DNA from: Alphaproteobacteria bacterium
GTDB taxonomy: Bacteria; Pseudomonadota; Alphaproteobacteria; SP197
Assembly: GCA_965228895.1 (NCBI GenBank)
Contig: OZ245842.1
Coordinates: 2,976,001-3,040,000, forward strand
DNA: 64,000 bases
Direction of reading: 5' to 3'
Shown: in pieces, positions 6,291 through 34,306 of the stretch
Layout of the letters: the number at the start of each line of letters is the position of its first letter
How positions within the stretch are numbered: the stretch's first letter is position 1
Position numbers and translations under genes: made by a program
The notes under the pieces: generated by a model
Databases searched by the model: none
What the model was told of the DNA's origin: nothing
Seen by the model: only the letters and a program-made list of their open reading frames with translations

Positions 6291-6301
6291 CGCCGCCTCC
6301 T

Positions 6302-9148: not shown

Positions 9149-9253
9149 CCGCTCTCAAAGGCCGCCTGTGCGCTGTACCATCATAGCGTCTCGCCAAGAC
9201 GGCCAGCGCGGCTTAACGTGTCGCCGGCTTGCCCAAGAACAAGGTAGTTGACC

Positions 9254-9907
9254 ATGGCATCAACCTCGCCCCTCGCCGAACTGACCGCCGCCACCCACGA
9301 CTGCCTGGAGGCCGCCCGTCTGACGTTCGGCGCGCCGACGGACCAGATCGATCATGCCATCGCCGGCCTCGGTGCCCTCACCATGCCGACAGACGAACCC
9401 GCCGATCACGATGACGAACTGCCCCAGACTGTGGCGCGTCATCTGAAACCCGGCGGCGTCAAGCACGAGCAGGCGAGCGCCCTGCTCGACAAGCTGGCCG
9501 CGGCGGCGGGGCGGCTGCCTTGGAGCCCGGCCTTCTATCCAGAAGACGGCCACCCCGACATTCCGCTTTTCTGGAAGAACTACGCCTTCGCCATGGCTGT
9601 CAGCCACTCGCGCTGGGCCGATCAGGCCATGCTGACGTCAAGCGAGGTCGGCTTGAGCTTCACCGTCCAGGCGCCGCATACGGTCTATCCCGAACACGCG
9701 CACACGGCGGTTGAGCTCTATTACGTGATCTCCGGCAAGGCGCGTTGGAAACGCGGCACCGAGCCATGGGTCATGCGCTATCCAGGCGAGATCATTCTGC
9801 ACACGACCGGCATGCGCCATGCCATGGAAACCGGCGAGGAACCTTTGGTCGCGTTCGCCATGTGGGTATCGCATACCGATGCACCGGTCGTCATCGTCCG
9901 CTCGTAG
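9254..9907 (+). CDS. Cupin, DMSP lyase (DddQ/DddL)-like family
   Basis: YPEHAHTAVELYYVISG and PGEIILH...HAMETGEEPL cupin motifs. Confidence 0.7.
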   Translation: MASTSPLAELTAATHDCLEAARLTFGAPTDQIDHAIAGLGALTMPTDEPADHDDELPQTVARHLKPGGVKHEQASALLDKLAAAAGRLPWSPAFYPEDGHPDIPLFWKNYAFAMAVSHSRWADQAMLTSSEVGLSFTVQAPHTVYPEHAHTAVELYYVISGKARWKRGTEPWVMRYPGEIILHTTGMRHAMETGEEPLVAFAMWVSHTDAPVVIVRS

Positions 9908-10213
9908 CGGTGTCGCCCTATGGTCGATCGACAACGTGGGCGCGGGCTTCTACCTCATAGGAAGCAACCCGTCTGGGCATCTTGCGCCAAGCTAGCGCCG
10001 TGCCCTACCCTCGGCGCCGAATTGAGAACAGGCTGATTTCTGAACACCGGGCTGCTGCCGCCTGGTCGACGTCCTGGCTGGATCTTGTTTGATCGTTGCG
10101 GGTTTCTGGTTGCGTGCAACGGTTGTTGGTTAAGCGGTATGCCGAAAGGGCGTGCGATGACATCAGCATTGAACCTTGTCGACGGAACGGCCGCGCTGCG
10201 CCTGCCACGGAGC

Positions 10214-10510
10214 ATGGCGTGTTTTGCCGCGTTGTTGCTGACGCTGCTCATGGCCAGCCAGGTCTCCGCCTACACGTTCGAATACTGCAAGGCCTATGCC
10301 GACAAGGTGGTTCAAGAGTCGACGTCGGCGGCGCTGTCGAACGCCATGCGCGGTACCACATCGGACCCTGGCTTGAGCGGCCTGACCGGCAGCGGTTCGC
10401 ACAACGACAGCAATAGCCTAAGCGGCGTCCTGGGCAGCCTTTCCGAATCCCAGGACCAGCAATCGCTGTGGCAGCGGACATTCAACCATTGTATGGGCGT
10501 CAGCCGCTGA
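10214..10510 (+). CDS. Small secreted hypothetical protein with a Cys pair and a Gly/Ser-rich centre
   Basis: Signal-like FAALLLTLLMASQVSA, then YCKAYA...FNHCMG; the start could instead be 10157. Confidence 0.55.
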   Translation: MACFAALLLTLLMASQVSAYTFEYCKAYADKVVQESTSAALSNAMRGTTSDPGLSGLTGSGSHNDSNSLSGVLGSLSESQDQQSLWQRTFNHCMGVSR

Positions 10511-10546
10511 GCGGCGTGTCGCATCAACGACCTCAAGGAGGTGGCG

Positions 10547-10867
10547 ATGAAGAAGACTCAATTCCTGAAGGCGGGCCTCGTCGCCATGGCGTTCGCGCTT
10601 GGCACAGCCGCGACAGTGCCGGCCAGCGCCCAAGACGAAGCTGCAGCGCGCGATATCAACGACATCACCTGCCGGGACGTCATCCGCATGAGCGGCGACG
10701 ACCGTGATATCGCCGTGGCATTCCTGCACGGCTACATCCTGGGCGATGGCGAGTCGACGGAGTTCGTGGTCGAAGAGCTCTATCTGGCGACCGACCTCTT
10801 CATCGAGTACTGCCTGGATAACACTGATGCCGTCGCGGTCGACGCGTTGCGCAAACACGTCGAGTAG
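10547..10867 (+). CDS. HdeA/HdeB-family periplasmic chaperone-like protein
   Basis: Signal peptide (ASA/Q), ITCRDV...AFLHGY...YCLDN; AAGGAG RBS. Confidence 0.75.
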   Translation: MKKTQFLKAGLVAMAFALGTAATVPASAQDEAAARDINDITCRDVIRMSGDDRDIAVAFLHGYILGDGESTEFVVEELYLATDLFIEYCLDNTDAVAVDALRKHVE

Positions 10868-10885
10868 ACATCGACGAACACAAAC

Positions 10886-11470
10886 CTAAAGAGCCCGCGT
10901 CATAAGCAGAATGTCCCCGCCATAGCGAATTTTCTCATGGCGAACGGCCGGTTGGCGTGCGCGTTCCTTGTACCCAAGTGCTTCATATAGCCTGATGGCG
11001 GTCTGATTCTCCGCAAAAACATTGAGGCTCATTTCTTTGAAGTTATTGGCTTTTGCGGCCGACTCCGCCTCAGCCATCAGGCGTTTGCCAATGCCGGAGC
11101 CTCGAAACTCAGGATAGACCGCCAAGGCCATGACGTAATAGCTGCCGTCGGCGTGCATATGTAGGAATGGCTCATAGAGATAGTGGCGATCGTCGGGCGC
11201 CAGCGGGTCGGGTGGGCCATCGCCCATCGCATCCATGGGAAAGGCGTGTACGGAACCCAGCACCCCCTCTTCATTTTCGGCAACCCAGCAGTTCGAGAAA
11301 GCCGTCGTCGCGTCGGAACGGGAGAACAGATGCTCGACGATCACATTGGTGCTGCGCTCCGGGATGACGCCATCATAGACAGCCTCCACCAAACCGCCCG
11401 ACGCTTCCAAGAGGGCGTGCGCCAGATGAGGGATGTCAGCAACTTCCGCAGGTCTTACTGAAAAGCTCAT
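10886..11470 (-). CDS. GNAT family N-acetyltransferase
   Basis: LAVYPEFRGSGIGKRL and N..AIRLYEALGY motifs. Confidence 0.9.
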   Translation of the reverse strand: MSFSVRPAEVADIPHLAHALLEASGGLVEAVYDGVIPERSTNVIVEHLFSRSDATTAFSNCWVAENEEGVLGSVHAFPMDAMGDGPPDPLAPDDRHYLYEPFLHMHADGSYYVMALAVYPEFRGSGIGKRLMAEAESAAKANNFKEMSLNVFAENQTAIRLYEALGYKERARQPAVRHEKIRYGGDILLMTRAL

Positions 11471-11591
11471 GTTGGTTGAATTTCAGTTTTCGCGATGCAG
11501 CTTGTCCTTGTTGGATCGAGACTCTATCTCGGCGCCGGATCGCGATTTCACAACGCGTAAAATCACAGGCCGGCTTACGGCCATGCGCTAG

Positions 11592-12818
11592 TTAGTCCTC
11601 GTGCTTCAGGTCATCTTCCACATCGATATCAACGACATCAAAACCGACCGGCTTGCGCGCCCAGGGATAGCCGTTGATGGCCATTTCGTAGCCGACGTCA
11701 TAGAGCGCGCGCATGTACTCGAGGTCGAAGGCCTCCTGCGGCTCCATGTCGAAATCATCGGGCACGTATGCCAGATAGAAATCGTTGCCGTCTCTCAGCG
11801 ACGTCAGGTAGATGCGGTCGAGGTCGCCGATGCCCTGGGTTCGTATAAGGGATGAGACGGACGCGCCGACAATCGAGAAGATGTCCGGGTTGACCGTCGA
11901 CCAGCGCGCGTCGAGCGGCGAGTTGCGGATGACATAGACCTCCGGACGTCCCTGCACGTCCAGGATCTCCATCAACGCCGGCCAGTCGATGGTTGTCGGA
12001 TAGACAAACACCTGAGATACCGCGCCGCCATCGACATGCAGTTCGTCGTAGATCTCGCCGTTAAACTCGACCTCGAACAAGACGGGCGGGAACGCGCCGG
12101 GGACCGAAGCCGACGCAAGCAGGACGTCGCTGATCAGATCGCGTTTGTCGGGCCGGTCGCTTGCGGCAATCGCCGTGATGTTCCAGATAACCGGACGCTT
12201 GGCGTCAAGATTGGTCGTGCTGACAAAGAGCCGCCGGCCTTCTTTGAAGGCCGCCGCCAGTTCACCCATCATCTCCGGCGTCATGTAGCCATAGATGATC
12301 TCACGCAGCTTGTCGGTGCTGGCGGCGGCATCGCCGGTGATGATTTCCGTCCACGCCCGCTGCGTGACGAGATCGTCGGTCGTGTAGAGCGTGTACATGT
12401 CTTTCAGCGTCTGATCGTACTTCGGACCCAAGAAGGCGAAGGGCGCGATCAGGGCGCCGGTGCTGATGCCGGTCACCATGGTGAACTCAGGCCGCGTGCC
12501 CGCTGCCGTCCAACCGTTCAAGAGGCCGGAGCCAAAGGCGCCGTCCGGCCCGCCGCCGGAAATGGCGAGATAATAGTGCGGCACGCCGACAATACCGGTC
12601 TGGCGCGCGCGGATCTCTTCAACCGTTGAGTTCGCAAGTCGTTCGAGCAGGAAATCGGGCGTCGCATCACCCCAGAAGCGCGCGTTCGGCACGCCTGGTA
12701 TCTGAGCCAGCTGATCTTCAGGGTTCGGAAGAGGTTTGCGGTCGGGCACGGTGCCACAGGCCACCAGCACACTCATAAGCGCGGCCATAAGCACGGCCAC
12801 CAACGTCGTCGGATTCAT
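11592..12818 (-). CDS. Patatin-like phospholipase, lipoprotein
   Basis: Lipobox LVAC, SGGGPDGAF, GISTG nucleophile and DGG catalytic motif. Confidence 0.9.
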   Translation of the reverse strand: MNPTTLVAVLMAALMSVLVACGTVPDRKPLPNPEDQLAQIPGVPNARFWGDATPDFLLERLANSTVEEIRARQTGIVGVPHYYLAISGGGPDGAFGSGLLNGWTAAGTRPEFTMVTGISTGALIAPFAFLGPKYDQTLKDMYTLYTTDDLVTQRAWTEIITGDAAASTDKLREIIYGYMTPEMMGELAAAFKEGRRLFVSTTNLDAKRPVIWNITAIAASDRPDKRDLISDVLLASASVPGAFPPVLFEVEFNGEIYDELHVDGGAVSQVFVYPTTIDWPALMEILDVQGRPEVYVIRNSPLDARWSTVNPDIFSIVGASVSSLIRTQGIGDLDRIYLTSLRDGNDFYLAYVPDDFDMEPQEAFDLEYMRALYDVGYEMAINGYPWARKPVGFDVVDIDVEDDLKHED

Positions 12819-13082: not shown

Positions 13083-13661
13083 ATGTCGACCACGTTGACG
13101 ATCGTGCTGGTGCTGTTGGCGCTGGTGGTACTGGTCATTGTCTGGGCTATCGCGATCTACAATCGCCTGGTGACCCGGCGCCAGCAGACCGAGGAAGGCT
13201 GGAGCGGCATCGATGTGCAGCTCAAACGCCGCTCGAACCTGATACCCAATCTGGTGGAGACCGTGAAGGGCTATGCGTCTCACGAACAGGAGACGCTGGA
13301 CAACGTCACCGCCATGCGCGCGCGGGCCGAGGCGGCACCGGGCGATTCACCGGAAGCGCGCGGCCAGGCCGAAAGCGCGTTGTCGGGCGCCTTGGTGCAG
13401 CTCTTCGCGGTCGCCGAGAACTATCCGGACCTGAAGGCCAGCAGCAACTTCATCGAGCTGCAGCAGGCGCTGGCCGAGGTCGAAGATCAGATCCAGATGG
13501 CGCGGCGCTACTACAACGGCGCCGTGCGCAACATGAACATCCTGGTCGACTCCTTCCCCAGCAACATCGTCGCCCAGCGCTACGATTTCCAGAAGGCCGT
13601 CTACTTCGAGATCGACGACCCCGCCGACAAGGCCGTGCCGAAGGTGGCGTTCGGAACCTAG
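13083..13661 (+). CDS. lemA: LemA family protein
   Basis: N-terminal TM, WSGIDVQLKRR, AVAENYPDLKA, RRYYN, FPSN. Confidence 0.95.
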   Translation: MSTTLTIVLVLLALVVLVIVWAIAIYNRLVTRRQQTEEGWSGIDVQLKRRSNLIPNLVETVKGYASHEQETLDNVTAMRARAEAAPGDSPEARGQAESALSGALVQLFAVAENYPDLKASSNFIELQQALAEVEDQIQMARRYYNGAVRNMNILVDSFPSNIVAQRYDFQKAVYFEIDDPADKAVPKVAFGT

Positions 13662-13665
13662 CGCC

Positions 13666-15648
13666 ATGTTATGCCACCGCGGCTTGATGTTGTTTGTCCG
13701 CCGGGCAGCGCTCGGTGTGTTGGCGGCATGTCTGCTGCTTGGCGCGAACGAAGCCGCCGCCCAGTCGACACCGGAACGTATCAAGTCGTACGTCTCGGAC
13801 ATCACGATCCAGACAGACGGCACGCTTCTGGTGCGCGAGACGATCACCGTTCATGCCGCGGGCAACAAGATCAAACGCGGCATCTTCCGCGACTTTCCGA
13901 CAATCTATCCCGGTCCCTTGGGACTAAAGGAAAAGACCGGCTTCGACCTCTTGGAGGTTCTGCGCGACGGCGAGCCCGAACCTCACTTTACCGAAGCGTT
14001 GGACAACGGCGTCCGGCTCTATATCGGCGACGAGAATACCTACCTGCCAGATGGCGACTATACCTACACCATCGTCTACGAGAGCGACTGGCAGATACGT
14101 TTCGACGACGGTTTCGACGAACTCTACTGGAACGTCACCGGCAACGGTTGGGACTTCACCATCGAGCGGGCTGAAGCGCGGGTCACCTTGCCGGCCGGCG
14201 CGGAAATTCGCGAGGTCAACGCCTATACGGGCGCCTTCGGCCAGACCGGCACCAATTACAAGAGCGCGATCACGGCCGACAACGTCGTACTGATCTCGAC
14301 GACGCAACCGCTTGCCCGATATGCCGGTTTGACCATCTCCGTCACGTGGCAGAAAGGTATCGTTGCCGAACCGAGCGGCGCCGATCGCGTCTTCAACCTG
14401 CTCACCGACAACATCGCGATCCTGGTTGGTCTTCTGGGTTTTGTACTGACCGTCATCTTTTTCTTGAGGCTATGGAACCGTGTCGGGCGCGACCCCGAAA
14501 AGGGCGTTGTCATCCCGCTCTTCAAGTCACCGGAAGGCATGTCGCCCGTGGTTGTCGGCTATGCGGCGAACTGGGGAATTGGAACCGGTTTCAGCCGGTC
14601 GCGTGCCTTCGCCGTCGCGCTCACCAGCATGGCGACCAAGGGAGCCGTCTCCATTGTCGAGAACGACGACGACAGCTTCACGATCAGCCGCGCCGACGAC
14701 GCCGACCGAAGCCGGCTGTCGCCCGGTGAGAAGGCTGTCTTCGATGAACTCCTTGGCGGCTGGTCGTCCTCGGTCACGCTGAGCAGGACCTATGACCCGG
14801 AGATCGGAGGCGCCGTCAGGGCGCTCGCGAAACTGATCAACGATGAATACACCGGCGTCTATTTTCGCAAGAACCGCGGCGCCTGGGCCGCCGGCACCGC
14901 GTTGGCCGTCGTCAGTGCGGTGATTGCCGCGGTCATAGACGCGCAACGCCTGGACGATCTTTTCTTTGTCGGCTTTCTGTCGTTGTTCGGCCTGGCGTTC
15001 GGCTTCGGGGCGGCAATGTTGTGGATCAAGCTCGCGCCGTTGGTTGCCGGGAAGTTCGAGTTCTCGGCGCGCCGCCTGTTGGGTCTTCTCGCCGGCCTTG
15101 TCTTCGCGACCATGTTTTCGGCACCGGCTATTGGTGCTTTGAGTTTCGCCGCGACGATGATTTCGCTGCCGGTGTTCATCGTCATGCTGCTGAATGCGGG
15201 CACCGTCGTGCTGTTCTGGTTCCTGTTGCGCGCACCGACCATGCACGGCCGCCAGGTCATGGACGAGATCGAAGGCTACAAGCTCTACCTCTCCGTCGCC
15301 GAGGCCGACCGCATGAACATGATGGGCACCGAACCGGCCATGACGCTGGAACTCTTCGAACGGCACCTGCCCTACGCGATGGCGCTCGATGTGGCCGACG
15401 CCTGGACCGAACACTTCGAAGCGCAGATCCCGCCCGAGCAGCAAAACGACAGCACCTACCGTCCGCGCTGGTACCGCTCGCAACATGGGATGGCGCGCCT
15501 GTCGTCCATGGCGTCAACGCTCTCGAGTTCTCTCTCCAGCACCGTATCGTCGGCCTCGACCCGTCCAAGCAGCAGCAGCTCCGGCGGCTCATCCGGCGGC
15601 GGTTCCTCCGGTGGCGGTGGCGGCGGCGGTGGCGGTGGCGGCTGGTAA
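13666..15648 (+). CDS. DUF2207 membrane protein (usual LemA partner)
   Basis: ELYWNVTG, LPYAMAL and a C-terminal Gly-rich tail ending GGGGGW. Confidence 0.9.
   Translation: MLCHRGLMLFVRRAALGVLAACLLLGANEAAAQSTPERIKSYVSDITIQTDGTLLVRETITVHAAGNKIKRGIFRDFPTIYPGPLGLKEKTGFDLLEVLRDGEPEPHFTEALDNGVRLYIGDENTYLPDGDYTYTIVYESDWQIRFDDGFDELYWNVTGNGWDFTIERAEARVTLPAGAEIREVNAYTGAFGQTGTNYKSAITADNVVLISTTQPLARYAGLTISVTWQKGIVAEPSGADRVFNLLTDNIAILVGLLGFVLTVIFFLRLWNRVGRDPEKGVVIPLFKSPEGMSPVVVGYAANWGIGTGFSRSRAFAVALTSMATKGAVSIVENDDDSFTISRADDADRSRLSPGEKAVFDELLGGWSSSVTLSRTYDPEIGGAVRALAKLINDEYTGVYFRKNRGAWAAGTALAVVSAVIAAVIDAQRLDDLFFVGFLSLFGLAFGFGAAMLWIKLAPLVAGKFEFSARRLLGLLAGLVFATMFSAPAIGALSFAATMISLPVFIVMLLNAGTVVLFWFLLRAPTMHGRQVMDEIEGYKLYLSVAEADRMNMMGTEPAMTLELFERHLPYAMALDVADAWTEHFEAQIPPEQQNDSTYRPRWYRSQHGMARLSSMASTLSSSLSSTVSSASTRPSSSSSGGSSGGGSSGGGGGGGGGGGW
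15583..15645 (+). repeat. Low-complexity (GGC/GGT)n run encoding the poly-Gly tail of DUF2207
   Basis: ggcggctcatccggcggcggttcctccggtggcggtggcggcggcggtggcggtggcggc. Confidence 0.8.
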
Positions 15649-16611: not shown

Positions 16612-18144
16612 TTACGCGACGCCGTCGGGCAGTTCGGCCCTGCGGCGCGCCATGAAATCCTGCAGCGCTTCGTCCAGCCCTTCGTCGAGCGGCGGCGGTT
16701 CGTACTGCGCCAGCCGGTCCTGTGCAATTCTGACCGCGCGCTGCTCGTGGGTCTGTGCGCCCTCGGCCTCCCACTGCTCGAAACTGTTGTTGTCGGCGAC
16801 CTCGGGGATAAAGAAACCGGAGAGGTAGTTGCGTTGCGTGTGCTCGCAGCCAAGGTAATGGCTGCCGGGTCCGACCTCGCGCACCGCATCCATGGCGAGG
16901 CCGTTGTCGGAAAGATCGATGCCTTCGGAAAAACTCTGCAGCATGGCGATCTGCTCGGCGTCCATGATGAACTTGGCGTAGCCGGCCGCGAGACCTGCCT
17001 CCAGCCAGCCGGCCGAATGCAAGATGAAGTTCGTGCCGGCCTGCAGCGTCGCCGTCATCGTCTGCATGCTCTCATAAGCCGCCTGCGCATCGGCGACCTT
17101 GGCGCCGGTCAGCATACCGCCGGAGCGCACCGGCACCTTGTAGCGGCGCGCGAGCTGGGTGCAGCAATAGATCATCTGGAGCGTCTCGGGCGTACCCATC
17201 ATCGGCGCGCCCGACTGCATGGAGACGGTGCTGAGGAAACTGCCATAGACCATCGGCGTTCCCGGGTTGACCAGCTGGGCATAGGCAAGGCCCGCGGTCA
17301 CCTCGGCATTCAGTTGAGCGACGGCGCCGGCGGTCGCGACCGGCGCCATGGCGCCGGCCATGATGAACGGCGTGATCAAAACCGCCTGACGGTACGCGGC
17401 GTAGTGCCGCAACGCGCCGAGCATCGACTCGTCCCACACCAGCGGCGAGTTGCAGTTCACAACGGACGTCATGACGACGTTGTCCTTCATGAACGCCTCG
17501 CCAAACAGGATCTCACACATGCGGCACGAATCGAGCGCGCGTTCAGGCGCTGACTGCACGCCCATGAAGGGTTTGTCGCTGAGCTTGATGTGGCTGTAGA
17601 TGATATCCAGATGGCGTTTGGGCACCGGCACGTCGATGGGTTCGCAGATGATGCCGCCGTCGTGGTGAAGCGGCGGCGTCATATAGGTCAGCTTGATGAA
17701 GTTCTGCAGGTCCTCCAGCGTCGCGTAGCGGCGCTGGTTGTCGAAGTCACGCACGAAGGGCGAGCCGAAGGTCGGCGCGAAGACCGTGTTGCGCCCGCCG
17801 ATCTCGACACTGCGTTCGGGGTTGCGCGCGACCTGGGTGTAAGTCTCCGGAATCAGATCGAGCTTCTCGGCGATCAACTCGCGGGGGATATGGACCCGCT
17901 CGCCCTTGACGTCGGCACCCGCCTCCTTCCATTGGGCCAACGCCGTCTCGTCGCGGAAATCGATACCGATCTCCTCCAGGATTTGCATGGAGGTGTCGTG
18001 GATCAGATCGAGCCCGGCCTGATCCAAAAGCTCGTAGACCGGGATCTCGCGGGTGATGTGACGTTTGTGAACCAGCGGGCCGCCAACACGTTCGCGCCGC
18101 CGCGCCGCCCTTCCTCCACGCCTTGCCTTTGTGCTTGCCGCCAT
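16612..18144 (-). CDS. mttB: Non-pyrrolysine trimethylamine-methyltransferase (MttB/MtgB) family protein; probable quaternary-amine:corrinoid methyltransferase
   Basis: NCNSPL, GAMAP, PVRSGGMLTGAKVADAQAAYES, HSAGWLE, VGPGSHYLG motifs; Leu (CTG, 17110-17112) at the position I align with pyrrolysine; GGAGGA RBS. Confidence 0.92.
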   Translation of the reverse strand: MAASTKARRGGRAARRRERVGGPLVHKRHITREIPVYELLDQAGLDLIHDTSMQILEEIGIDFRDETALAQWKEAGADVKGERVHIPRELIAEKLDLIPETYTQVARNPERSVEIGGRNTVFAPTFGSPFVRDFDNQRRYATLEDLQNFIKLTYMTPPLHHDGGIICEPIDVPVPKRHLDIIYSHIKLSDKPFMGVQSAPERALDSCRMCEILFGEAFMKDNVVMTSVVNCNSPLVWDESMLGALRHYAAYRQAVLITPFIMAGAMAPVATAGAVAQLNAEVTAGLAYAQLVNPGTPMVYGSFLSTVSMQSGAPMMGTPETLQMIYCCTQLARRYKVPVRSGGMLTGAKVADAQAAYESMQTMTATLQAGTNFILHSAGWLEAGLAAGYAKFIMDAEQIAMLQSFSEGIDLSDNGLAMDAVREVGPGSHYLGCEHTQRNYLSGFFIPEVADNNSFEQWEAEGAQTHEQRAVRIAQDRLAQYEPPPLDEGLDEALQDFMARRRAELPDGVA

Positions 18145-18311
18145 CGCAAATCCTCCCGACGGCATTTGGAAGCCAGGGGGCCGCGCTGTCAAAACAGAAA
18201 TGCGGGGCGCCGAAAACCGGGCATAATGTCCTGTCGCCAGGTGCCGAGGGCTTCGGGTTTGGAACAGTTTCGCACCTGCAACAAATCGCCCAACCGTATG
18301 GAAACCCTATG

Positions 18312-18382
18312 GTGTCGCTGTCACGCCTTGTGATAAACGGAGCGCTTGTGTCGATTGCGGACTAGTCCGTGTCGCGAGTGTC
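18312..18382 (+). promoter_or_regulatory. Candidate AraC/GlxA-family binding repeats (GTGTCG at 18312, 18348 and 18369)
   Basis: Repeated hexamer, the last two copies exactly 21 bp apart, within the divergent mttB/corrinoid promoter region. Confidence 0.35.
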
Positions 18383-18456
18383 TTAGCTTGCCGGTCGCGG
18401 CAAGCGTACGTGACGTTGTTTCGCCCGGTTTTCCGGCAGTTTAGCGGGAGCGTGGT

Positions 18457-19167
18457 ATGGCCGAAGAAGAAGACGATCTCGACCTTAGCACCCTGGATGA
18501 TGACGAACTCACCCAGCAGATGCATGAGGATCTTTACGACGGTCTCGCCGACGAGATTGTCGAGGGGGTCAATATCCTGCTCGGGCGAGGCTGGGCACCA
18601 TACAAGGTCCTGACCGAAGCGCTGGTCGAGGGTATGCGGATCGTCGGCATCGACTTCCGCGATGGCATCCTGTTTGTGCCGGAGGTGCTGCTGGCCGCCA
18701 ACTCGATGAAGGCGGGCATGGTTATCCTGCGCCCGCTTCTGGCCGAGACCGGCGCGCCCAAGCAGGGCTCGATCGTCATCGGCACGGTGAAGGGCGATAT
18801 CCACGACATCGGCAAGAACCTGGTCGGCATGATGCTGGAAGGCGCCGGTTTCGACGTCTACGACATCGGCATCAACAACGATGTCGAGAAGTACCTGGAG
18901 GCGCTCGAGGAGCACAAGCCGGACTTCCTGGGGATGTCGGCGCTGCTCACCACGACCATGCCCTATATGAAGGTCGTCATCGACACCATGAAGGAGCAGG
19001 GCATCCGCGACGACTATACGGTGCTGGTCGGCGGCGCACCCTTGAACGAGGCCTTTGCCGACAGTGTCGGGGCCGACGCCTATTGCCGCGATGCGGCGGT
19101 GGCGGTCGAAACCGCCAAAACCCTGGTCGCGGAGCGGCGCAAGTCCAACTCCGCCGCCGCCCAATGA
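18457..19167 (+). CDS. Stand-alone cobalamin-binding (corrinoid) protein, MtbC/MtgC-like
   Basis: Cap domain (LFVPEVLLAA), GDIHDIGKN (DxHxxG), MSALLTTT and VGGAP. Confidence 0.95.
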   Translation: MAEEEDDLDLSTLDDDELTQQMHEDLYDGLADEIVEGVNILLGRGWAPYKVLTEALVEGMRIVGIDFRDGILFVPEVLLAANSMKAGMVILRPLLAETGAPKQGSIVIGTVKGDIHDIGKNLVGMMLEGAGFDVYDIGINNDVEKYLEALEEHKPDFLGMSALLTTTMPYMKVVIDTMKEQGIRDDYTVLVGGAPLNEAFADSVGADAYCRDAAVAVETAKTLVAERRKSNSAAAQ

Positions 19168-19174
19168 GACCTCG

Positions 19175-19771
19175 ATGGCAGGCCGCTCGGGCAGCCTGAT
19201 CATCGCCTGCGGCGCGTTGGCGTGGGAAATCATGGCCCTAATCCGAACCCATGGCTGGACCGGCCTGGAAGTCCAGTGCCTGCCCGCGATCTGGCATAAC
19301 ACGCCGCAGAAGATTCCTGACGGCGTGCGTCAGAAGATTCACGAGAACCGCGACCGCTTCGACAACATCTTCGTCGCCTATGGCGATTGCGGCACCGGCG
19401 GCCTGTTGGATGAGGTGCTGGAAGAAGAAGGTGTCGAGCGGATCGATGGCGCGCACTGCTACCAGTTCTACATGGGCGCCGATGATTTCGATGCCCTGCA
19501 CGAGGACGACCCCACCTGCTTTTACCTGACCGACTATCTGGCCAAGCACTTCGACACGTTGATCTGGAAGGGCCTGGGGATCGACCGCCATCCCGAACTG
19601 CTGCCGATGTACTTCGGCAACTACACCGCCGTCGTCTATCTGGCCCAGGTCGAGGACGACGCGTTGCAGGCAAAGGCCAAGGCCGCTGCCGACAAGCTGG
19701 GGCTTGAATACCGCTATATCTTCACTGGTTACGGCGGCATCGCGCCCCTGCTCGCCAAAGCCGCCAGCTAG
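19175..19771 (+). CDS. DUF1638 domain protein (Cys-containing, associated with corrinoid systems)
   Basis: IIACGAL, HNTP, YGDCGTGG, GAHCY, YLTDYL, YFGNY. Confidence 0.88.
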   Translation: MAGRSGSLIIACGALAWEIMALIRTHGWTGLEVQCLPAIWHNTPQKIPDGVRQKIHENRDRFDNIFVAYGDCGTGGLLDEVLEEEGVERIDGAHCYQFYMGADDFDALHEDDPTCFYLTDYLAKHFDTLIWKGLGIDRHPELLPMYFGNYTAVVYLAQVEDDALQAKAKAAADKLGLEYRYIFTGYGGIAPLLAKAAS

Positions 19772-19782
19772 GAGACCCCGTC

Positions 19783-20088
19783 ATGGCCAAAGCCACCGTC
19801 GTCTATTGGCGCGATATTCCCGCGCAGGTCATCGTCAAGGCCGGGCGCAAGAACGCCAAGCGCGTCCTGCCTGAACGCTTCGAGAAAGCAATCGACCAAG
19901 CAGCGATGCTCGCCAAGCTCTCCGGCACGGACGCCTATCTCGAACAATGGCGCCGCGGCGATGCCGTCGAGTGCGGCGATGATCTGGAAGCCGAGGCCGA
20001 CCGTATGGCCACGGACCTCGATAACGCGTACCCGGACGATGTGCTGTCGGCCTATATCAAGGCCGGCGGCATGAAGCCCGAGTCCTAG
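19783..20088 (+). CDS. 'Virulence factor' domain small protein (PF13769-like)
   Basis: VYWRDIPAQV...ERFEKAIDQAAM...DAYLEQWR. Confidence 0.85.
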   Translation: MAKATVVYWRDIPAQVIVKAGRKNAKRVLPERFEKAIDQAAMLAKLSGTDAYLEQWRRGDAVECGDDLEAEADRMATDLDNAYPDDVLSAYIKAGGMKPES

Positions 20089-20104
20089 GAACAAGGTTTT
20101 GGTC

Positions 20105-21010
20105 ATGAAGTCGAACGGTACCCTGGAAAAGAAACTCGCCGCTGGTGAGTTTGTCATCACCGCCGAGACAACGCCGCCGGACGGCGCCGACGAAGCCAGC
20201 GTGATGGCCAAGGTCGACTGCCTGAAAGGGCTGGTCGATGCGGTGAACGTGACCGACGGCGCCGGCGCGCGTGCCCATATGTCGGCCATGGCCTGTGCCG
20301 CGGTGATGGCGAAGAACGGTATCGAACCTGTGCTGCAGTTCACCGTGCGCGACCGCAACCGCCTGGCAATCCAGGGCGACTTCATCGGCGGGCCGGCACT
20401 CGGCATTCCCAACATCCTGTGCCTGCACGGCGACAGCATCACCAACGGCGATCAGCCGGACGCCAAGCCGGTCGAAGACGTCGACAGCCGCGGCCTGATG
20501 TCGATGGCGCGCCAGATGCGCGACGAAGGCACATTCCCCTCGGGCCGCGAAATCGATCCTGCGCCACAACTCTTCATCGGCGCTGCCGACAGCCCGCGCG
20601 ATCCCGACCCAGATTTCAAACCGAGTGGCCTGGATGGCAAGATTGCGGCCGGCGCGGATTTCTTTCAGACCCAGTTCGCCTTCGATATCGAGGTCCTGAA
20701 ACGCTACATGGCGGTCTTGAACGATCACGGCGTGACCGAAAAGGCATACTTCATTGTCGGCGTCGGCCCGCTGGCGTCGGCCAAGTCGGCGCGCTGGATG
20801 ACCGAGAACCTGTTCGGCGTCCACGTGCCCGACGCCATCATTGCGCGGCTGGAAGGTGCCGAGGATCAGCGCGCCGAGGGCCGTAAAATCTGCGCCGAGT
20901 TGATCGAGCAGTTTCGTGACATCGACGGCATCCGTGGCGCCCATCTGATGGCGCCGCGTGGTGAAAAGGCGATTGCACAAACGCTCGTCGAGTTCGGCAT
21001 CCGCGGTTAG
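20105..21010 (+). CDS. metF: Methylenetetrahydrofolate reductase family, paralog 1
   Basis: TAETTPP, AVNVTDG, RDRNRLA, LCLHGD, KIAAGADFFQTQ, GAHLM. Confidence 0.9.
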   Translation: MKSNGTLEKKLAAGEFVITAETTPPDGADEASVMAKVDCLKGLVDAVNVTDGAGARAHMSAMACAAVMAKNGIEPVLQFTVRDRNRLAIQGDFIGGPALGIPNILCLHGDSITNGDQPDAKPVEDVDSRGLMSMARQMRDEGTFPSGREIDPAPQLFIGAADSPRDPDPDFKPSGLDGKIAAGADFFQTQFAFDIEVLKRYMAVLNDHGVTEKAYFIVGVGPLASAKSARWMTENLFGVHVPDAIIARLEGAEDQRAEGRKICAELIEQFRDIDGIRGAHLMAPRGEKAIAQTLVEFGIRG

Positions 21011-21033
21011 CCGGGCACAAGGAGAGACCCGCC

Positions 21034-21546
21034 ATGCTCGCTTTTCGCCATTGGTCGGTCCGTAACGCCAAGGGGCTGATGCGCCTCTATCGGGTTTTCG
21101 AAGGCACCATCGCGGCGTGTGAGCCCGTCGTGCGCGCGATCGGCTACGAGCGGTTGGAAAAACCCGTCGCCGTTGTCGAGCGTGGCATCAAGGGCGCCAT
21201 GTTCGATTGCCAGATGTGCGGCCAGTGCGCGCTGTCGTCGACCGGCATGTCGTGCCCGATGAACTGCCCGAAGAACCTGCGCAACGGGCCGTGCGGCGGC
21301 GTGCGCGAAGACCTGATGTGCGAGGTCAAGCCGGACATGCCGTGCGTCTGGGTCAAGGCGTGGGAAGGCAGCCAGGATATGTTCGGTGAAGCCAGCATCC
21401 TCGACGTCCAGAAACCGGTCGACAACCGGCTGAAGGGCAAGTCGTCCTGGCTGAAGGTCATCCGCGAGATCCGCGCCAAAAAGGACGGCGAGCTGACGCC
21501 GGCTAAGGCGACGGCACGAGACTTCGCTGGCGACCCCATCCGATGA
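21034..21546 (+). CDS. metV: MetV-like Fe-S/Zn subunit (MTHFR C-terminal domain)
   Basis: CQMCGQC...CPMNCPKNLRNGPCGG...CEV...CVW Cys cluster. Confidence 0.88.
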   Translation: MLAFRHWSVRNAKGLMRLYRVFEGTIAACEPVVRAIGYERLEKPVAVVERGIKGAMFDCQMCGQCALSSTGMSCPMNCPKNLRNGPCGGVREDLMCEVKPDMPCVWVKAWEGSQDMFGEASILDVQKPVDNRLKGKSSWLKVIREIRAKKDGELTPAKATARDFAGDPIR

Positions 21547-22637
21547 CCGACGACACCGATCGCGATCAACCGACCGGCCCTCTCAATGAAGGCATGGCGT
21601 ATCCGGAGATGGCCGATCCCGGGCCGATCGACCCGGGCGCGCCGCTCGAGCCCCTGCCCGGCCACACCTCGCGTGGCCGGTTGGAACGTATCCTGCGCGC
21701 CGGCGATTTTGCCGTCACCGCCGAGTTGTCGCCGCCGGATTCGGCCGATCCCATGGATGTCTTCGAGCGCGCCAGCATTTTCGATGGCTGGGTTGACGCG
21801 ATCAACGCGACCGATGGATCCGGCGCCAACTGCCACATGTCGAGCGTCGGCGTCTGTTCGCTCTTGACCCGCGTCGGTTACGCACCGGTGATGCAGATTT
21901 CGTGCCGCGACCGCAACCGTATCGCCATTCAGGGTGACGTTCTGGGTGCGGCGGCCATGGGTGTCGTCAACCTGCTGTGCCTGACCGGCGACGGCGTGCA
22001 GTGCGGCGATCAACCGGAAGCCAAACCAGTCTTCGACTTCGACTGCATGTCGCTGTTGGAAACCATCCGGACATTGCGCGACGATTCGCAACTGCTGTCC
22101 GGCCGCAAGCTCGACAAGGCGCCGGAGATCTTTCTGGGCGCGGCCGCCAATCCGTTCGCGCCGCCCTACGACTTCCGGCCGCTGCGTCTGGCCAAGAAGG
22201 TTGCCGCGGGCGCCCAGTTCGTGCAGACGCAGTACTGCTACGACGTGCCGATGCTCGAGCGCTACATGGAAAGGGTCCGTGACATGGGCCTGCACGAGAA
22301 GTGCTTCATCCTCGTCGGTGTCGGCCCCCTGGCTTCGGCCAAGGCGGCCCAGTGGATCCGCTCCAATGTGCCAGGCGTGCACATCCCCGACAGCGTGATC
22401 GACCGCCTGAAAGGCGCGGAAAAACAGAAACAGGAAGGCAAACAGTTGTGCGTCGACCTGATTCAGCAGATTCGCGAGATCGAGGGGGTTGCAGGTATTC
22501 ACCTGATGGCGTATCGCCAGGAAGAAGCCGTCGCCGAAATCATCGAACAATCGGGCGTCTTGCGGGGTCGTGCCCCTCATGCCGTTCATCCCACCATTCC
22601 CGGCTACATGCGGGATAGAGCAAAGGCCCCCCAATGA
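21543..22637 (+). CDS. metF: Methylenetetrahydrofolate reductase family, paralog 2
   Basis: TAELSPP, AINATDG, CRDRNRIA, LTGD, KKVAAGAQFVQTQ, GIHLM; ATGA overlap with metV. Confidence 0.9.
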   Translation: MTDDTDRDQPTGPLNEGMAYPEMADPGPIDPGAPLEPLPGHTSRGRLERILRAGDFAVTAELSPPDSADPMDVFERASIFDGWVDAINATDGSGANCHMSSVGVCSLLTRVGYAPVMQISCRDRNRIAIQGDVLGAAAMGVVNLLCLTGDGVQCGDQPEAKPVFDFDCMSLLETIRTLRDDSQLLSGRKLDKAPEIFLGAAANPFAPPYDFRPLRLAKKVAAGAQFVQTQYCYDVPMLERYMERVRDMGLHEKCFILVGVGPLASAKAAQWIRSNVPGVHIPDSVIDRLKGAEKQKQEGKQLCVDLIQQIREIEGVAGIHLMAYRQEEAVAEIIEQSGVLRGRAPHAVHPTIPGYMRDRAKAPQ

Positions 22638-23551
22638 CCGACACCGTCATCAGCTCAGCGACCAAAGAAGTCGTCATCGGTTTCGACCGCCCGTTCACCG
22701 TCATCGGCGAACGCATCAACCCGACCGGGCGCAAGAAGCTGGCCGAGGAAATGGCCGCCGGCGACTATAGCCGCGTCGAGTCCGACACCCTGGCCCAGGT
22801 CGCCGCCGGCGCCCATATGCTGGACGTCAATGCCGGCGTACCGCTGGCCGACGAACCGCAGATGCTGGCCGACAGCATCCAGCTCGTGCAGTCACTGACC
22901 GACGTGCCGCTGTCGATCGACAGCTCCATCGTCGCGGCGCTCGAAAAAGGCCTGTCGGTCTATCAGGGCAAGGCGCTGGTCAACTCGGTGACCGGCGAAG
23001 AAGAGCGCCTTGAGGTCGTTCTGCCGCTGGTCAAAAAATACGGCGCTGCCGTTGTCGCGATCTCCAACGACGAAACCGGCATTTCCGAAGATCCGGATGA
23101 ACGTTACGCGGTCGCCAAGATGATTGTCGAGCGTGCCGAGGATCACGGCATTCCGCGTTCCGACGTGGTCGTCGATCCGCTCGTCATGCCGATCGGTGCG
23201 ATCGGCGAAGCCGGGCGCACGTCCTTTGCCATTCTGCGCCGTCTTCGCGAGGAGCTGAAGGTCAACACGACATGCGGCGCGTCGAACATCTCGTTCGGCC
23301 TGCCGGCCCGTCCGCAACTGAACGCAGCGTTCCTGGGCATGGCGATGTCGAACGGCATGACGTCGGCGATCACCAATCCTCTGGAATCGGAGATCATGGA
23401 CGGCATCATGGCCGCCGATGTCATGATGGGCACCGACAAGAACTGCCGCTCGTGGATCAAGAAACATTCCGGTGCAACCCGCGCCGCCGGTGGCGCCGAT
23501 GTGGCGGAAGCCCGCGCCAAGCGCCGGGAGGGCCGCCGCCGTCGTGGCTGA
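22634..23551 (+). CDS. Pterin-binding methyl-THF:corrinoid methyltransferase (AcsE/MeTr-like; equivalent to the MetH folate domain)
   Basis: IGERINPTGRK, LDVNAG, PLSIDSS, LVNSV, VDPL, GASNISFGLP. Confidence 0.93.
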   Translation: MTDTVISSATKEVVIGFDRPFTVIGERINPTGRKKLAEEMAAGDYSRVESDTLAQVAAGAHMLDVNAGVPLADEPQMLADSIQLVQSLTDVPLSIDSSIVAALEKGLSVYQGKALVNSVTGEEERLEVVLPLVKKYGAAVVAISNDETGISEDPDERYAVAKMIVERAEDHGIPRSDVVVDPLVMPIGAIGEAGRTSFAILRRLREELKVNTTCGASNISFGLPARPQLNAAFLGMAMSNGMTSAITNPLESEIMDGIMAADVMMGTDKNCRSWIKKHSGATRAAGGADVAEARAKRREGRRRRG

Positions 23552-25538
23552 CGATCCGCTTGTTGTTTTCACCCCATCGGGCCGGCGTGGCAACTTCCGC
23601 CGCGGCACGAACCTGTTGCAGGCAGCGCGCGAGTTGGGCGTCGACCTGGATTCGGTGTGCGGCGGTCGCGGCATCTGCACGCGCTGCCAGGTCACCATTG
23701 GCGAAGGCGAGTTCGCCAAGCACGGCATTTCGTCCTCCAACGATCACCTGACACCGTTTACCGAGCCGGAACTTCGCCAACAGAAGTCCGGTCAGCTCAA
23801 ATCCGGCCGGCGCCTGTCTTGCCAGTCACGCATCGGCGGCGATCTCGTCGTTGACGTGCCGCCGGAATCGCAAGTCCACAAACAGGTCGTCCGAAAACGC
23901 GCGGAGGCACGCGCGGTCAAACTGAACCCTGTCGTCCACCTGCACTATGTCGAGGTGACGCCACCGGACATGCACGAACCGGCCGCGCACCTGCGACGCC
24001 TGAAACAGGCGTTGAAGGAACAATGGGACATCGATGCCGAGACCGCCGACATCCCGCTCCTTCAAAAGCTCAACAAGACGCTGGAGGAAGGCGAGTACAA
24101 GGTCACGGTCTTCCTGCGCGAGGGCAAGCGTATCCTGGATGTCCGTCCGGGTTTCTACGACAAACTGTTCGGCATGGCGGTGGATGTCGGCTCGACCACC
24201 ATCGCCGCCCATCTGTGTGATCTGCAGACCGGCGAGGTCGTCGCCTCGGCGGGGCGCATGAACCCGCAGATCCGCTTCGGCGAAGACCTGATGAGCCGGG
24301 TCAGCTACGTGATGATGAACCCGGGCGGCGACGAAGAGATGACCGCGGCGGTGCGCGAGTCGTTGAACGAACTGGCGCTGGAGACGGCCAAGGAAGCCGG
24401 CATTAACCCACTCGACATCATGGAAGTCACGATCGCCGGCAACCCGATCATGCATCATCTGGTGCTGGGTATCGATCCGACGCCGCTGGGCTTCGCGCCG
24501 TTCGCGCTATCGACCGACGAATCGACGGAGCTTTGGGCGAGCGAGATCGACCTGCATCTGAACCCGGGCACCAGGGTCTATGTGCTGCCCTGTATCGCCG
24601 GTCATGTCGGCGCCGATGCGGCCGGTGTGGTGTTGTCGGAGATGCCTTATCACGCCGATGACATGACCTTGATCGTCGATGTCGGCACCAACGCCGAAAT
24701 CATCCTGGGCAACAAGGACCGCCTGCTCGCAGCATCGAGCCCGACCGGACCGGCGTTCGAAGGCGCCCAGGTCAGCAGCGGCCAGCGCGCCGCGCCGGGC
24801 GCCATCGAACGGGTGCGCATCGACCCGGAGACGCTGGAGCCGCGGTTCAAGGTGATCGGCGACGACACCTGGTCCGACGATCCCGATTTTGCGTCGACGC
24901 CGACCGGCATCTGCGGTTCCGGCATTATCGAGGTCTTGGCCGAGATGTACCTGACCGGCCTGTTGACCACCGATGGTGTGATCGACGGCGCCATGGCCGA
25001 ACGCACGCCGCGCCTGATCCAGCAGGACCGCACTTACGCCTATGTGATCCACGAGGGCAACCCGACGATCACGGTGACCCAGAACGACATCCGCCAGATC
25101 CAGCTCGCCAAGGGCGCGCTTTATGCCGGTGCCCGGCTGCTGATGGACCACATGGGTATCGAGACCGTCGACCGGGTGACGCTGGCCGGCGCCTTCGGCA
25201 GTCATATCGATACCAAGTACGCGATGATCCTGGGCATGATCCCCGACTGCGATCTCGCCAAAGTGGGCAGCGCCGGCAACGCGGCGGGTACCGGCGCGCG
25301 CATCGCATTGCTCAACAAGGACGCGCGTCGCGAGCTAGAAGAAGTCGTCCGCGACATCGAGAAGATTGAGACCGCGGTGGAGGCGAAGTTCCAGGAACAC
25401 TTCGTCGAAGCCATGGCGATCCCGCACAAGACCGCGCCCTACCCCAACCTGAACAAAGCGGTCACCCTGCCGGAACCGAAGTTCGCGGCAACGGACGAAG
25501 AAAACCCGCGCCGGCGCCGCCGCCGCAAGGCAGGTTGA
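23544..25538 (+). CDS. ATP-dependent reductive activator of corrinoid proteins (RACo/RamA-like ASKHA, DUF4445) with N-terminal 2Fe-2S domain
   Basis: CGGRGICTRC...SCQ, DVGSTT, NPQIRFGEDLMSR, DVGTNAE, GPAFEG, GICGSG, GNAAGTG; GTG start overlaps the upstream stop. Confidence 0.93.
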   Translation: MADDPLVVFTPSGRRGNFRRGTNLLQAARELGVDLDSVCGGRGICTRCQVTIGEGEFAKHGISSSNDHLTPFTEPELRQQKSGQLKSGRRLSCQSRIGGDLVVDVPPESQVHKQVVRKRAEARAVKLNPVVHLHYVEVTPPDMHEPAAHLRRLKQALKEQWDIDAETADIPLLQKLNKTLEEGEYKVTVFLREGKRILDVRPGFYDKLFGMAVDVGSTTIAAHLCDLQTGEVVASAGRMNPQIRFGEDLMSRVSYVMMNPGGDEEMTAAVRESLNELALETAKEAGINPLDIMEVTIAGNPIMHHLVLGIDPTPLGFAPFALSTDESTELWASEIDLHLNPGTRVYVLPCIAGHVGADAAGVVLSEMPYHADDMTLIVDVGTNAEIILGNKDRLLAASSPTGPAFEGAQVSSGQRAAPGAIERVRIDPETLEPRFKVIGDDTWSDDPDFASTPTGICGSGIIEVLAEMYLTGLLTTDGVIDGAMAERTPRLIQQDRTYAYVIHEGNPTITVTQNDIRQIQLAKGALYAGARLLMDHMGIETVDRVTLAGAFGSHIDTKYAMILGMIPDCDLAKVGSAGNAAGTGARIALLNKDARRELEEVVRDIEKIETAVEAKFQEHFVEAMAIPHKTAPYPNLNKAVTLPEPKFAATDEENPRRRRRRKAG

Positions 25539-32824: not shown

Positions 32825-34306
32825 ATGACCGACGACCAACAGATCTTCATCGGCGGCGGCGAGACGGCCCAGAACCTGAACCTGGGCTTCGCCAATCGGC
32901 ACGGCCTAATCGCCGGTGCCACGGGCACCGGCAAGACCGTGACCTTGCAGATTCTGGCCGAAGGGTTCTCGCAAGCCGGCGTTCCGGTCTTTCTGTCCGA
33001 TGTGAAGGGCGATCTCTCCGGTCTATCGCAGGCGGGCGTGGCCAAACCGAAACTGCTGGAACGGGTCGAAACGATCGGCATGGAAGGTTTCGATCCGGCG
33101 CCGACCCCGGTCGTCTTCTGGGACCTGTTCGGCAAACAAGGCCATCCCGTACGCACGACGGTGTCGGAGATGGGGCCCCTGCTCTTGGCGCGGCTCTTGG
33201 AACTGAACGACGTGCAGGAAGGTGTCCTGTCGATCGCCTTTCAGGTCGCCGACGACGAGGGTCTGCCGATCCTCGACCTGAAGGACCTGAAGTCGCTGCT
33301 GCAGTTCGTTGCCGATAACCGCAAAGACCTGTCGACAGAATATGGCAACGTCTCCGTCCAATCGGTCGGCGCCATACAACGTCGCCTCTTAACGTTGAAG
33401 CAACAGGGCGGCGACAAGTTCTTCGGCGAGCCGGCGCTTGACCTCAACGACTTCATGCGCACCGCGCCGGATGGCCGCGGCTACGTCAGCATTCTGGCAG
33501 CCGACAAGCTGATGTTGACGCCTCAGCTCTACGCCACGTTCCTTCTGTGGCTGCTGTCGGAACTGTTTGAAGACCTGCCGGAAGTCGGTGATCCCGACAA
33601 ACCCAAGCTCGTGTTCTTCTTCGACGAGGCGCACCTGTTGTTCGACAACGCACCGAAGGCGCTGATCCAGAAGATCGAACAGGTCGTGCGGCTGATCCGC
33701 TCGAAGGGCGTCGGCGTCTACTTCGTGACGCAGAGCCCGCTCGATGTGCCTGACGAGGTCCTCGGTCAGTTGGGCAACCGTGTCCAGCACGCGCTTCGCG
33801 CCTTCACACCGCGCGACCGCAAGGCGGTGAAAGCCGCAGCCGAGACGTTCCGCGCCAACCCCAGACTGGATGTCGCGACGGCGATTACGGAACTGGGCGT
33901 CGGTGAGGCCTTGGTCTCGACCCTGCAAGACCGGGGCGTGCCGAGCGTGGTCGAGCGCACGCTGATCCGCCCGCCCTTGTCGCGCATGGGCCCGGCCAAG
34001 CGCGCCGAGCGCCAGGCGGTGATCGCCGACAGCCCGGTCGCCGGGCTTTATGACGAGACCGTCGACCGCAAGTCGGCCCATGAGGTTCTGGCCAAACGTG
34101 CCGAGAAAGCAGCCAAGGAGCAGGCCAAGGCCGACGAACGGGCCAAGGCCGAAAGGACGTCGTCACGCAGCAGTGGCTCGTCGGGCGGACGCCGCCGTCA
34201 ATCGGCTACCGAAACCATGGCAAAGAGTGTCTTGCGAAGTGCCGGGCGCACCATCGGCCGCGAACTTGTGCGCGGCATTCTGGGCTCGCTGTTCAAGGGG
34301 CGGTGA
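32825..34306 (+). CDS. DUF853 / HerA-like P-loop ATPase (YjgR family)
   Basis: [42 protein letters not shown]. Confidence 0.93.

Follow-up and report, generated by a model that had tools for sequence, protein, structure and literature searches.

Arginine-rich terminal tags on the client enzymes, and an acidic extension on the cobalamin carrier, of a split methionine synthase gene cluster in an alphaproteobacterium

The stretch of DNA analysed here, which we call the window, comprises 64,000 nucleotides of contig OZ245842.1 from an alphaproteobacterial assembly (GCA_965228895.1). Positions 16612–25538 of the window hold nine genes, and each family assignment was confirmed by Pfam. The cluster is the known split MetH/MtgBCD(E) system of aerobic Proteobacteria, in which one small corrinoid protein (CoP, the cobalamin carrier) shuttles a methyl group between MttB-family enzymes, a pterin methyltransferase, a homocysteine methyltransferase (MtgE) and the reductive activase of corrinoid enzymes (RACo, or RamA). 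A new feature of this system is that the client enzymes of the carrier, and no other protein of the cluster, bear a short tag rich in arginine, joined through a flexible linker of low complexity. It sits at the N-terminus of MttB and at the C-termini of the pterin methyltransferase, MtgE and RACo. Also new is an N-terminal extension, highly acidic and specific to one clade, that the carrier has gained ahead of its cap domain. The genes and termini concerned are the following.

16612–18144, minus strand: MttB-superfamily (non-pyrrolysine) methyltransferase, MtgB-like, 510 amino acids (PF06253, E 4e-218)
18088–18129, minus strand: N-terminal arginine-rich tag of MttB, KARRGGRAARRRER, residues 6–19, read from the window sequence
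18457–19167, plus strand: corrinoid (cobalamin-carrier) protein CoP of the MtgC type, 236 amino acids (PF02607, E 2e-14; PF02310, E 1e-26)
18457–18513, plus strand: acidic N-terminal extension of the carrier, MAEEEDDLDLSTLDDDELT, ahead of the Pfam cap domain
22634–23551, plus strand: pterin-binding methyltransferase (MtgD/MeTr-like), 305 amino acids (PF00809, E 1.4e-28)
23504–23548, plus strand: C-terminal arginine-rich tag of the pterin methyltransferase, AEARAKRREGRRRRG, behind a low-confidence linker
23544–25538, plus strand: RACo/RamA-like reductive activase of corrinoid enzymes, 664 amino acids, likely GTG start (Fer2, RACo_linker, Raco_middle and RACo_C_ter, the last an ASKHA domain)
25503–25535, plus strand: C-terminal poly-arginine tag of RACo, NPRRRRRRKAG, with six arginines

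The window MttB begins MAASTKARRGGRAARRRER and the pterin methyltransferase ends RAKRREGRRRRG, each with seven arginines, while the carrier begins MAEEEDDLDLSTLDDDEL, in which 10 of 18 residues are acidic and none is basic. An earlier reading of this DNA, made from the sequence only, had quoted these three termini and that of RACo correctly to the letter, as judged from the window translations. It had also listed the DUF1638 protein, the small PF13769 protein, both MetF proteins and MetV as untagged, which the window sequences confirm. Gene counts come from a codon-model caller, as one based on GC content at third codon positions (GC3) had given a shadow open reading frame (ORF) across 21144–22634; owing to a DUF1638 ORF that is too long, the codon-model caller omits the carrier of the window, leaving 52 window genes without it. 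Exactly two of these 52, the pterin methyltransferase and RACo, have at least five arginines in their last 15 residues. None has an 18-residue stretch with at least eight aspartates or glutamates within its first 50 residues, a measure on which the carrier reaches 10. An arginine-rich N-terminus is found in seven of the 52 when the longest ORF is taken, and is less distinctive on its own because most of these instances stem from over-extended starts.

Conservation was followed in the best 80 of 600 relatives retrieved by scanning GTDB species genomes with the carrier alignment. The carriers of these 80 loci have 76–89% identity, and the loci originate from several alphaproteobacterial orders and from some records labelled Gammaproteobacteria. 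At least five arginines among the last 15 residues was the criterion for a C-terminal tag, and it was applied to the 1,303 predicted genes of the 80 loci and the window. All 47 pterin methyltransferase ORFs carry an arginine-rich tail behind a variable linker of proline, alanine, glycine and glutamate, and 39/42 pass the criterion, as do all 46 complete RACo homologues. In contrast to these families, none of the 209 non-client proteins of the cluster passes (CoP 0/76, DUF1638 0/57, PF13769 0/37, MetF 0/27 and MetV 0/12), and the C-terminus of MttB does so in one of 44 cases. Among unrelated neighbour proteins, with MtgE taken out, the background is 12/925.

A fourth tagged family surfaced in this screen among the remaining genes. 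It consists of proteins of about 340 amino acids that match PF02574 and represent the MtgE module, and it adjoins the carrier in 35 of the 80 loci (L031:645-1682(+), for example). In all 35 orthologues the C-terminus reads ...RRERRR(S/G)R(A/G) or similar, with at least five arginines in 32 and four arginines plus a lysine in three; when a paralogue from locus L011 is included, 32/36 pass the criterion and 35/36 a laxer one, at least four arginines per six-residue stretch. That paralogue (L011:12168-13202(-)) is a second PF02574 protein with 27% identity to MtgE, which adjoins a carrier gene and has no arginine in its tail. It may be a carrier-independent homocysteine methyltransferase, in which case the tag might tell the two kinds apart.

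For MttB, the criterion was at least five arginines per 15-residue stretch directly ahead of the core. The arginine-rich motif lies 10–25 residues ahead of the core in all 40 homologue ORFs, including paralogues of 38–41% identity, and 38/40 pass, as opposed to a background of 85/925 that is inflated by longest-ORF starts. No further recurrent family in the related loci has such an arginine-rich N-terminus. Six divergent alphaproteobacterial MttB paralogues encoded on plasmids away from a carrier (25–50% identity), one of them on the megaplasmid of Ruegeria pomeroyi DSS-3, all have six or seven arginines in their first 40 residues. The arginine-rich stretch is partly covered by the Pfam MTTB model, which starts inside it, model position 1 pairing with residue 9 of the true window protein. 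The closest solved structure, the alphaproteobacterial 4yyc, aligns through the stretch, and its aligned N-terminal part has exactly the sequence found at that place in the MttB of S. meliloti pSymB. The start of the window gene is the ATG at 18144, with a GGGAGGA ribosome-binding site 6 nt before it; that of the carrier, at 18457, is preceded by GGGAG.

The sequence-only reading had proposed a basic tag common to the enzymes that take turns on the carrier, matched by an acidic N-terminus on the carrier itself, and this holds in all related loci examined. The tails proved conserved and far commoner than in neighbouring genes, and the cognate homocysteine (BHMT) module, where it had suggested looking, is tagged too (32 of 35 MtgE orthologues with at least five arginines).

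Arginine-rich peptides are common in the wrong frames of DNA with 62–65% GC, and one could ascribe the tags to compositional noise of a GC-rich genome, that is, to CGN-rich read-through, mis-called starts or overlapping translation signals. Longest-ORF N-termini are indeed often arginine-rich, in the related loci (the 85/925 above) as in the window (7/52), and a translation signal does lie within one tail. The RACo ORF as listed begins at 23472; the likelier start is the GTG at 23544, which is preceded by the ribosome-binding site GGGAGG (23527–23532) and gives RACo an 8-nt overlap with the end of the pterin methyltransferase gene. The letters of this site also supply the R-E-G codons of the arginine tail. 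The tail sequence of the pterin methyltransferase is thus under a dual constraint here, and the overlap suggests translational coupling of the two genes. Compositional noise nevertheless seems scarcely credible as the source of the tags. The true C-terminal background of 12/925 stands against 39/42 to 46/46 in the tagged families, and the tags persist across proteobacterial classes and gene orders. The MttB motif lies inside the Pfam family model and in the deposited 4yyc sequence. Nine pterin methyltransferase genes encode one and the same tail peptide, RRGGREARMARG, in nine DNA versions that include switches between CGN and AGR codons, and the pattern of identical peptides under different DNA recurs in the MtgE and RACo tails. 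Such synonymous variation argues that the tails are translated and held by purifying selection rather than being GC-rich read-through, and as far as sequence data reach it refutes, together with the C-terminal frequencies, the explanation by noise.

No single strict motif unites the tags. The RRGGR sub-motif occurs in 29 of 47 MtgD tails, five of 46 RACo tails and two of 35 MtgE tails, and given this uneven spread the common feature is an arginine run on a flexible linker. In the AlphaFold2 model of the pterin methyltransferase, linker and tag (residues 281–305) have values of 46–53 for pLDDT, the per-residue confidence measure. Residues 266–278 of the same protein, directly ahead of linker and tag, form an extra helix past the TIM-barrel core shared with the anaerobe MeTr, with D268, C271 and W274 invariant among the pterin methyltransferases.

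Two other identities were considered for the tags and rejected. A twin-arginine translocation (Tat) export signal does not fit, as the residues behind the MttB motif, GGPLVHKRHITREIP, are not hydrophobic, and the other three tags are C-terminal. For a cargo peptide of an encapsulin or microcompartment, no shell-protein family was found in the Pfam matches of 51 window proteins, a scan that did not extend family by family to the related loci.

The acidic extension of the carrier is as constant as the tags. Its motif, DDLDLSTLDDDELVQQMH, with the approximate consensus (D/E)3-L/I-D/I-L-S-x-L-D-D-(D/E)-E-L-V-Q-Q-M-H, was detected in 80/80 locus carriers and in the 120 closest database homologues (120/120; 83–100% identity), whose first 22 residues contain 8–12 acidic and at most two basic residues. 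The closest of these homologues are labelled Rhodospirillales, Rhodospirillaceae or Nisaea. In a library of 50%-identity representatives, whose many fragments and over-extended ORFs allow qualitative use only, the motif can be followed to relatives of about 54% identity; corrinoid proteins of 50% or less do not have it and start at about query residue 15–22. The Pfam cap match of the window carrier begins at residue 20, and solved corrinoid proteins (1y80, MttC 7xcn, 4jgi, MtaC 2i2x, MtmC 3ezx and MetH) align only from residue 15–25. Taken together, these two limits indicate that the first 19 or so residues are a clade-specific addition. Three sister carriers of about 62–71% identity (P0154, P0177 and P0193) have a shorter, less acidic N-terminus (...QMQDDLYDGL). 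A fusion of a URO-D domain to a CoP (58% identity), which presumably resembles CmuA, has a plain linker in place of the acidic extension.

Tags and extension together span Alpha-, Beta- and Gammaproteobacteria and differing gene orders. All 80 loci combine the two, and so do three plasmid loci that belong to the in-group, namely those of Azoarcus (Betaproteobacteria), S. meliloti pSymB and Paracoccus aminovorans. Out-groups comprised five loci, all of them plasmid records, together with solved structures. In Gemmatirosa, Acetoanaerobium, Vescimonas, Thiodictyon and Halomicrococcus, the RACo-like proteins end without an arginine tail, neighbouring PF02574, MtrH-like or URO-D methyltransferases in these records are untagged, and their corrinoid proteins are without the DLDL..DDDEL motif. 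Tags and motif are both absent in four of the five; the fifth has an untagged RACo and no corrinoid protein in the stretch examined. A similar split set lies at 7164–11870 of locus L084, a plasmid of the aerobic haloarchaeon Halomicrococcus, where a corrinoid protein and RACo are encoded together with DUF1638 and an MtrH-like methyltransferase; the MttB homologues are at other sites of this plasmid.

Solved homologues from anaerobes stop near the conserved core. RACo 3zyy ends nine residues past the shared core as opposed to 35 in the window protein, the anaerobe MeTr 2yck ends four residues past it as opposed to 28 in the window pterin methyltransferase, and D. hafniense MtgB (2qne, 9yce) aligns only from query residue 34. 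In the comparison with anaerobe homologues that was suggested when the tags were first noticed, the solved anaerobe proteins are untagged and lack the acidic extension. What the comparisons across loci and out-groups show is that tags and extension are present, specific and conserved, and that both are under purifying selection.

We lean, if with modest confidence, to the view that the tags dock the clients on the acidic extension or the cap surface of the carrier and so provide a non-covalent stand-in for the linkers of MetH. The tags would be interchangeable docking or tethering elements, bound either by the extension as such or by the acidic face that it gives the cap domain. Such binding would raise the local concentration of the carrier around each client and offset the repulsion among proteins with net-negative cores. 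Since one site would be common to all clients, binding would be mutually exclusive and exchange fast, and a site on the cap domain could let the bound tag assist in uncapping the cobalamin. A wider claim is that of a portable docking code, by which one carrier could serve an open-ended set of methyltransferases and the covalent linkers of MetH would be replaced; this is a close call, which we would tip slightly to the negative. In a bolder version, multivalent contacts between tags and hub would build a dynamic assembly or condensate that shields Co(I) from oxygen in aerobes. The logic of a hub is supported by the divergent MttB paralogues, still tagged away from the carrier. Its physical plausibility is supported by the predicted flexibility of the tail and by the net-negative charge of the carrier and all clients. 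Prediction of a complex between the carrier and residues 262–305 of the pterin methyltransferase gave a score of 0.00 in both runs, which speaks neither for nor against docking.

Several observations weigh against docking on the extension. The charges of extension and tail co-vary in MtgD (rho 0.64) but scarcely in RACo (0.05) or MtgE (0.07), in figures uncorrected for phylogeny. As 80/80 in-group loci hold both features, they offer no contrast within the clade, and the out-group sample is small (five loci from the plasmid collection and the solved structures). The Halomicrococcus carrier has an acidic N-terminus of different sequence, yet its partners, an MttB homologue included, are untagged, a comparison confounded by halophile composition. 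The DUF1638 protein is genetically required for the same process, according to Price et al. (2018, PMC5764234), and yet it is untagged. There are other acidic candidates in the cluster, namely the acidic C-terminal half of the PF13769 protein and the DUF1638 protein with its net charge of −13. In the AlphaFold2 model of the carrier (62-sequence alignment; mean pLDDT 90.5), residues 1–4 fall below 50, residues 11–20 average 96 and residues 15–27 are helical. The model suggests that the extension, rather than being a free tail, is an acidic patch fixed in place, of which only about the first eight residues form a floppy tip, and the nearly invariant L10 and L13 would fit packing on the carrier domain. 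Finally, physical binding of tag to extension, the binding site and a kinetic benefit are what we infer from the pattern of conservation.

The tags could be functional and have a receptor other than the extension: another surface of the carrier, the PF13769 protein, the DUF1638 protein, or a cellular polyanion (anionic membrane lipids, polyphosphate or nucleic acid) that co-localises the clients, in which case the extension would be an independent adaptation of the carrier. We judge this unlikely, though a good deal less so than the explanation by noise. The tags are specific and conserved, yet their link to the extension is drawn from sequence; the extension is largely structured in the model, and charge co-variation is missing in two of three families, RACo and MtgE. 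Some tails are compositionally like arginine-rich RNA-binding peptides. PF13769 and DUF1638, both net acidic, are found with the carrier in 51 and 66 of the 80 loci, respectively. However, PF13769 is absent within 10 kb in 29 of the 80 loci, where the tags are still present. Extension and tags appear together in one clade, four of the five out-group loci have neither, and the tags are confined to proteins for which docking on the cobalamin face is expected. If the target were a membrane or polyanion, this would leave unexplained why a very acidic carrier that meets all clients has acquired extra negative charge. The PF13769 protein itself (19783–20088 in the window; L087:8556-8858) is basic in its N-terminal half and shares the acidic stretch DDLEAEADR with the S. 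meliloti copy; it is a possible alternative receptor or adaptor.

The charges of the cluster proteins bear on a further explanation, in which each tag serves its own enzyme through solubility, charge balance, folding, stability, a turnover signal or masking of the active site. No protein of the cluster is more acidic than the carrier (net −24 over its 236 amino acids), and the clients are net negative overall, tags counted in; the negative charge of the clients, and the predicted disorder of the tails, would suit a role in the enzyme itself. On the other hand, equally acidic non-clients are untagged (0/84 for DUF1638, at −13, and the MetF paralogues, at −11 and −12), and four unrelated folds are tagged only in the lineage whose carrier bears the extension. 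The position of the tag, N-terminal in one family and C-terminal in three, better fits a portable interaction module. An enzyme-intrinsic role thus appears improbable, and we continue to favour docking on the carrier.

The system as such is known. A split cobalamin-dependent methionine synthase has been described in Phaeobacter inhibens (Price et al. 2018, PMC5764234) and an MtgBCD(E) glycine-betaine methyltransferase in R. pomeroyi (Mausz et al. 2025, PMC12478193), the latter paper presenting the Mtg/split-MetH pathway as a major means by which abundant marine bacteria demethylate glycine betaine and make methionine. The window cluster resembles those systems in its MttB-family protein, its carrier with B12-cap and B12-binding domains, its PF00809 protein, its RamA-like RACo, its DUF1638 protein and a neighbouring MetF2. 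Related loci also share the PF02574 homocysteine module, which is the point of difference here, as none was found in the window (no tblastn match within the 64 kb). Without an MtgE copy in the window, either the module is encoded elsewhere in the genome or the cluster is limited to demethylation. Within their covered portions, Mausz et al. (2025, PMC12478193) mention no arginine, N-terminal, electrostatic or acidic features, and Price et al. (2018, PMC5764234) mention no tails and refer to arginine only in other contexts. Neither tags nor extension are mentioned in bioRxiv 10.64898/2025.12.19.695462 or in the 2026 paper on the MtgB active site (PMC13080624). The open full-text literature, subscription-only papers and supplements being outside its scope, gave nothing relevant on arginine-rich tags with corrinoid or methionine-synthase systems, in agreement with the earlier impression that no description was known.

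One-piece MetH unites the same modules and chemistry (homocysteine, folate, cap plus cobalamin, and reactivation), and the window carrier and pterin methyltransferase match its cobalamin and folate domains, respectively. MetH, however, has covalent linkers and is reactivated through its S-adenosylmethionine domain, whereas here separate genes encode proteins with charged terminal tags and reactivation falls to RACo/RamA. The anaerobic systems (MtgB/MtgC/MtgA of D. hafniense, MttBC of Methanosarcina and MeTr/CFeSP/RACo of Moorella and Carboxydothermus) have homologous enzymes and the same three-component logic, but their solved proteins start or stop at the conserved core, with neither arginine tags nor an acidic extension.

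Hubs that work through short charged elements are familiar from other processes. The acidic C-terminal tip of single-stranded DNA-binding protein (SSB) recruits many partners, and the acidic acyl-carrier protein is bound via basic patches of its client enzymes. Docking domains connect to this theme in polyketide synthases and non-ribosomal peptide synthetases, as do arginine/lysine-rich motifs in Rubisco linker proteins, and engineered poly-arginine tags load negatively supercharged capsids. Common to these systems and the present one are a small acidic hub, many partners and short, charged, portable terminal elements. The present arrangement differs in that the tag is on the clients and the receptor, as proposed, on the carrier, and in that the tag is common to four unrelated folds of one metabolic relay. 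No comparable tag arrangement for cobalamin carriers is described in the literature searched. The tags and the extension are thus a real, conserved feature of a known system, unreported in that literature, and the docking mechanism appears plausible.

If docking proves true, a shared tag would be a simple answer to how a free cobalamin carrier meets four kinds of partner fast enough to preserve Co(I) in oxic cells. It would also explain why the basic N-terminus has been retained in divergent MttB paralogues, down to 25% identity. The tag would then serve as a client marker readable from sequence, by which new carrier clients could be found in marine and soil Proteobacteria, and annotators could tell carrier-dependent members of the PF02574, PF00809, MttB and RACo families from superficially similar proteins, the untagged PF02574 protein of L011 being an example. 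As a small transplantable module, it could be used to wire enzymes to a B12 carrier or to engineer B12-dependent methyl transfer.

The five remaining genes of the cluster, all untagged, lie between the carrier and the pterin methyltransferase.

19175–19771, plus strand: DUF1638 protein (PF07796)
19783–20088, plus strand: small protein of the PF13769 'virulence factor' family (Pfam), with an acidic C-terminal half
20105–21010, plus strand: MTHFR-like protein, a MetF paralogue (PF02219)
21034–21546, plus strand: MetV, an MTHFR C-terminal-domain protein (PF12225; 0/12 homologues tagged)
21543–22637, plus strand: MTHFR-like protein, MetF2-like (PF02219; 0/24 homologues tagged)

The MttB ORF is unbroken under translation table 11, so the protein has no pyrrolysine, and its glycine-betaine substrate is putative. 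The flanking genes, which encode a BetI-type TetR regulator, two oxidoreductases with flavin mononucleotide (FMN) and flavin adenine dinucleotide (FAD) and a cupin resembling dimethylsulfoniopropionate (DMSP) lyase, are consistent with catabolism of betaine and osmolytes. The oxidoreductases (4305–8803, minus strand) are two tandem proteins of the FMN (old yellow enzyme-like) plus FAD/nicotinamide adenine dinucleotide (NAD) kind, like enzymes of the amine or dimethylglycine dehydrogenase type. The cupin gene (9248–9907, plus strand) adjoins them, and both fit a catabolic island for methylated osmolytes. Between this island and the cluster, a DUF2207 membrane protein (13666–15648, plus strand) with a long terminal serine/glycine run (...SSSSSGGSSGGGSSGGGGGGGGGGGW) adjoins a LemA gene (13083–13661). 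Further downstream, a HerA-like ATPase (32825–34306), a circularly permuted YpsA SLOG protein (37764–38237) and a TerB-domain protein (38249–38737) are neighbours and may belong together as a module for defence or stress that has nothing to do with the arginine tags.

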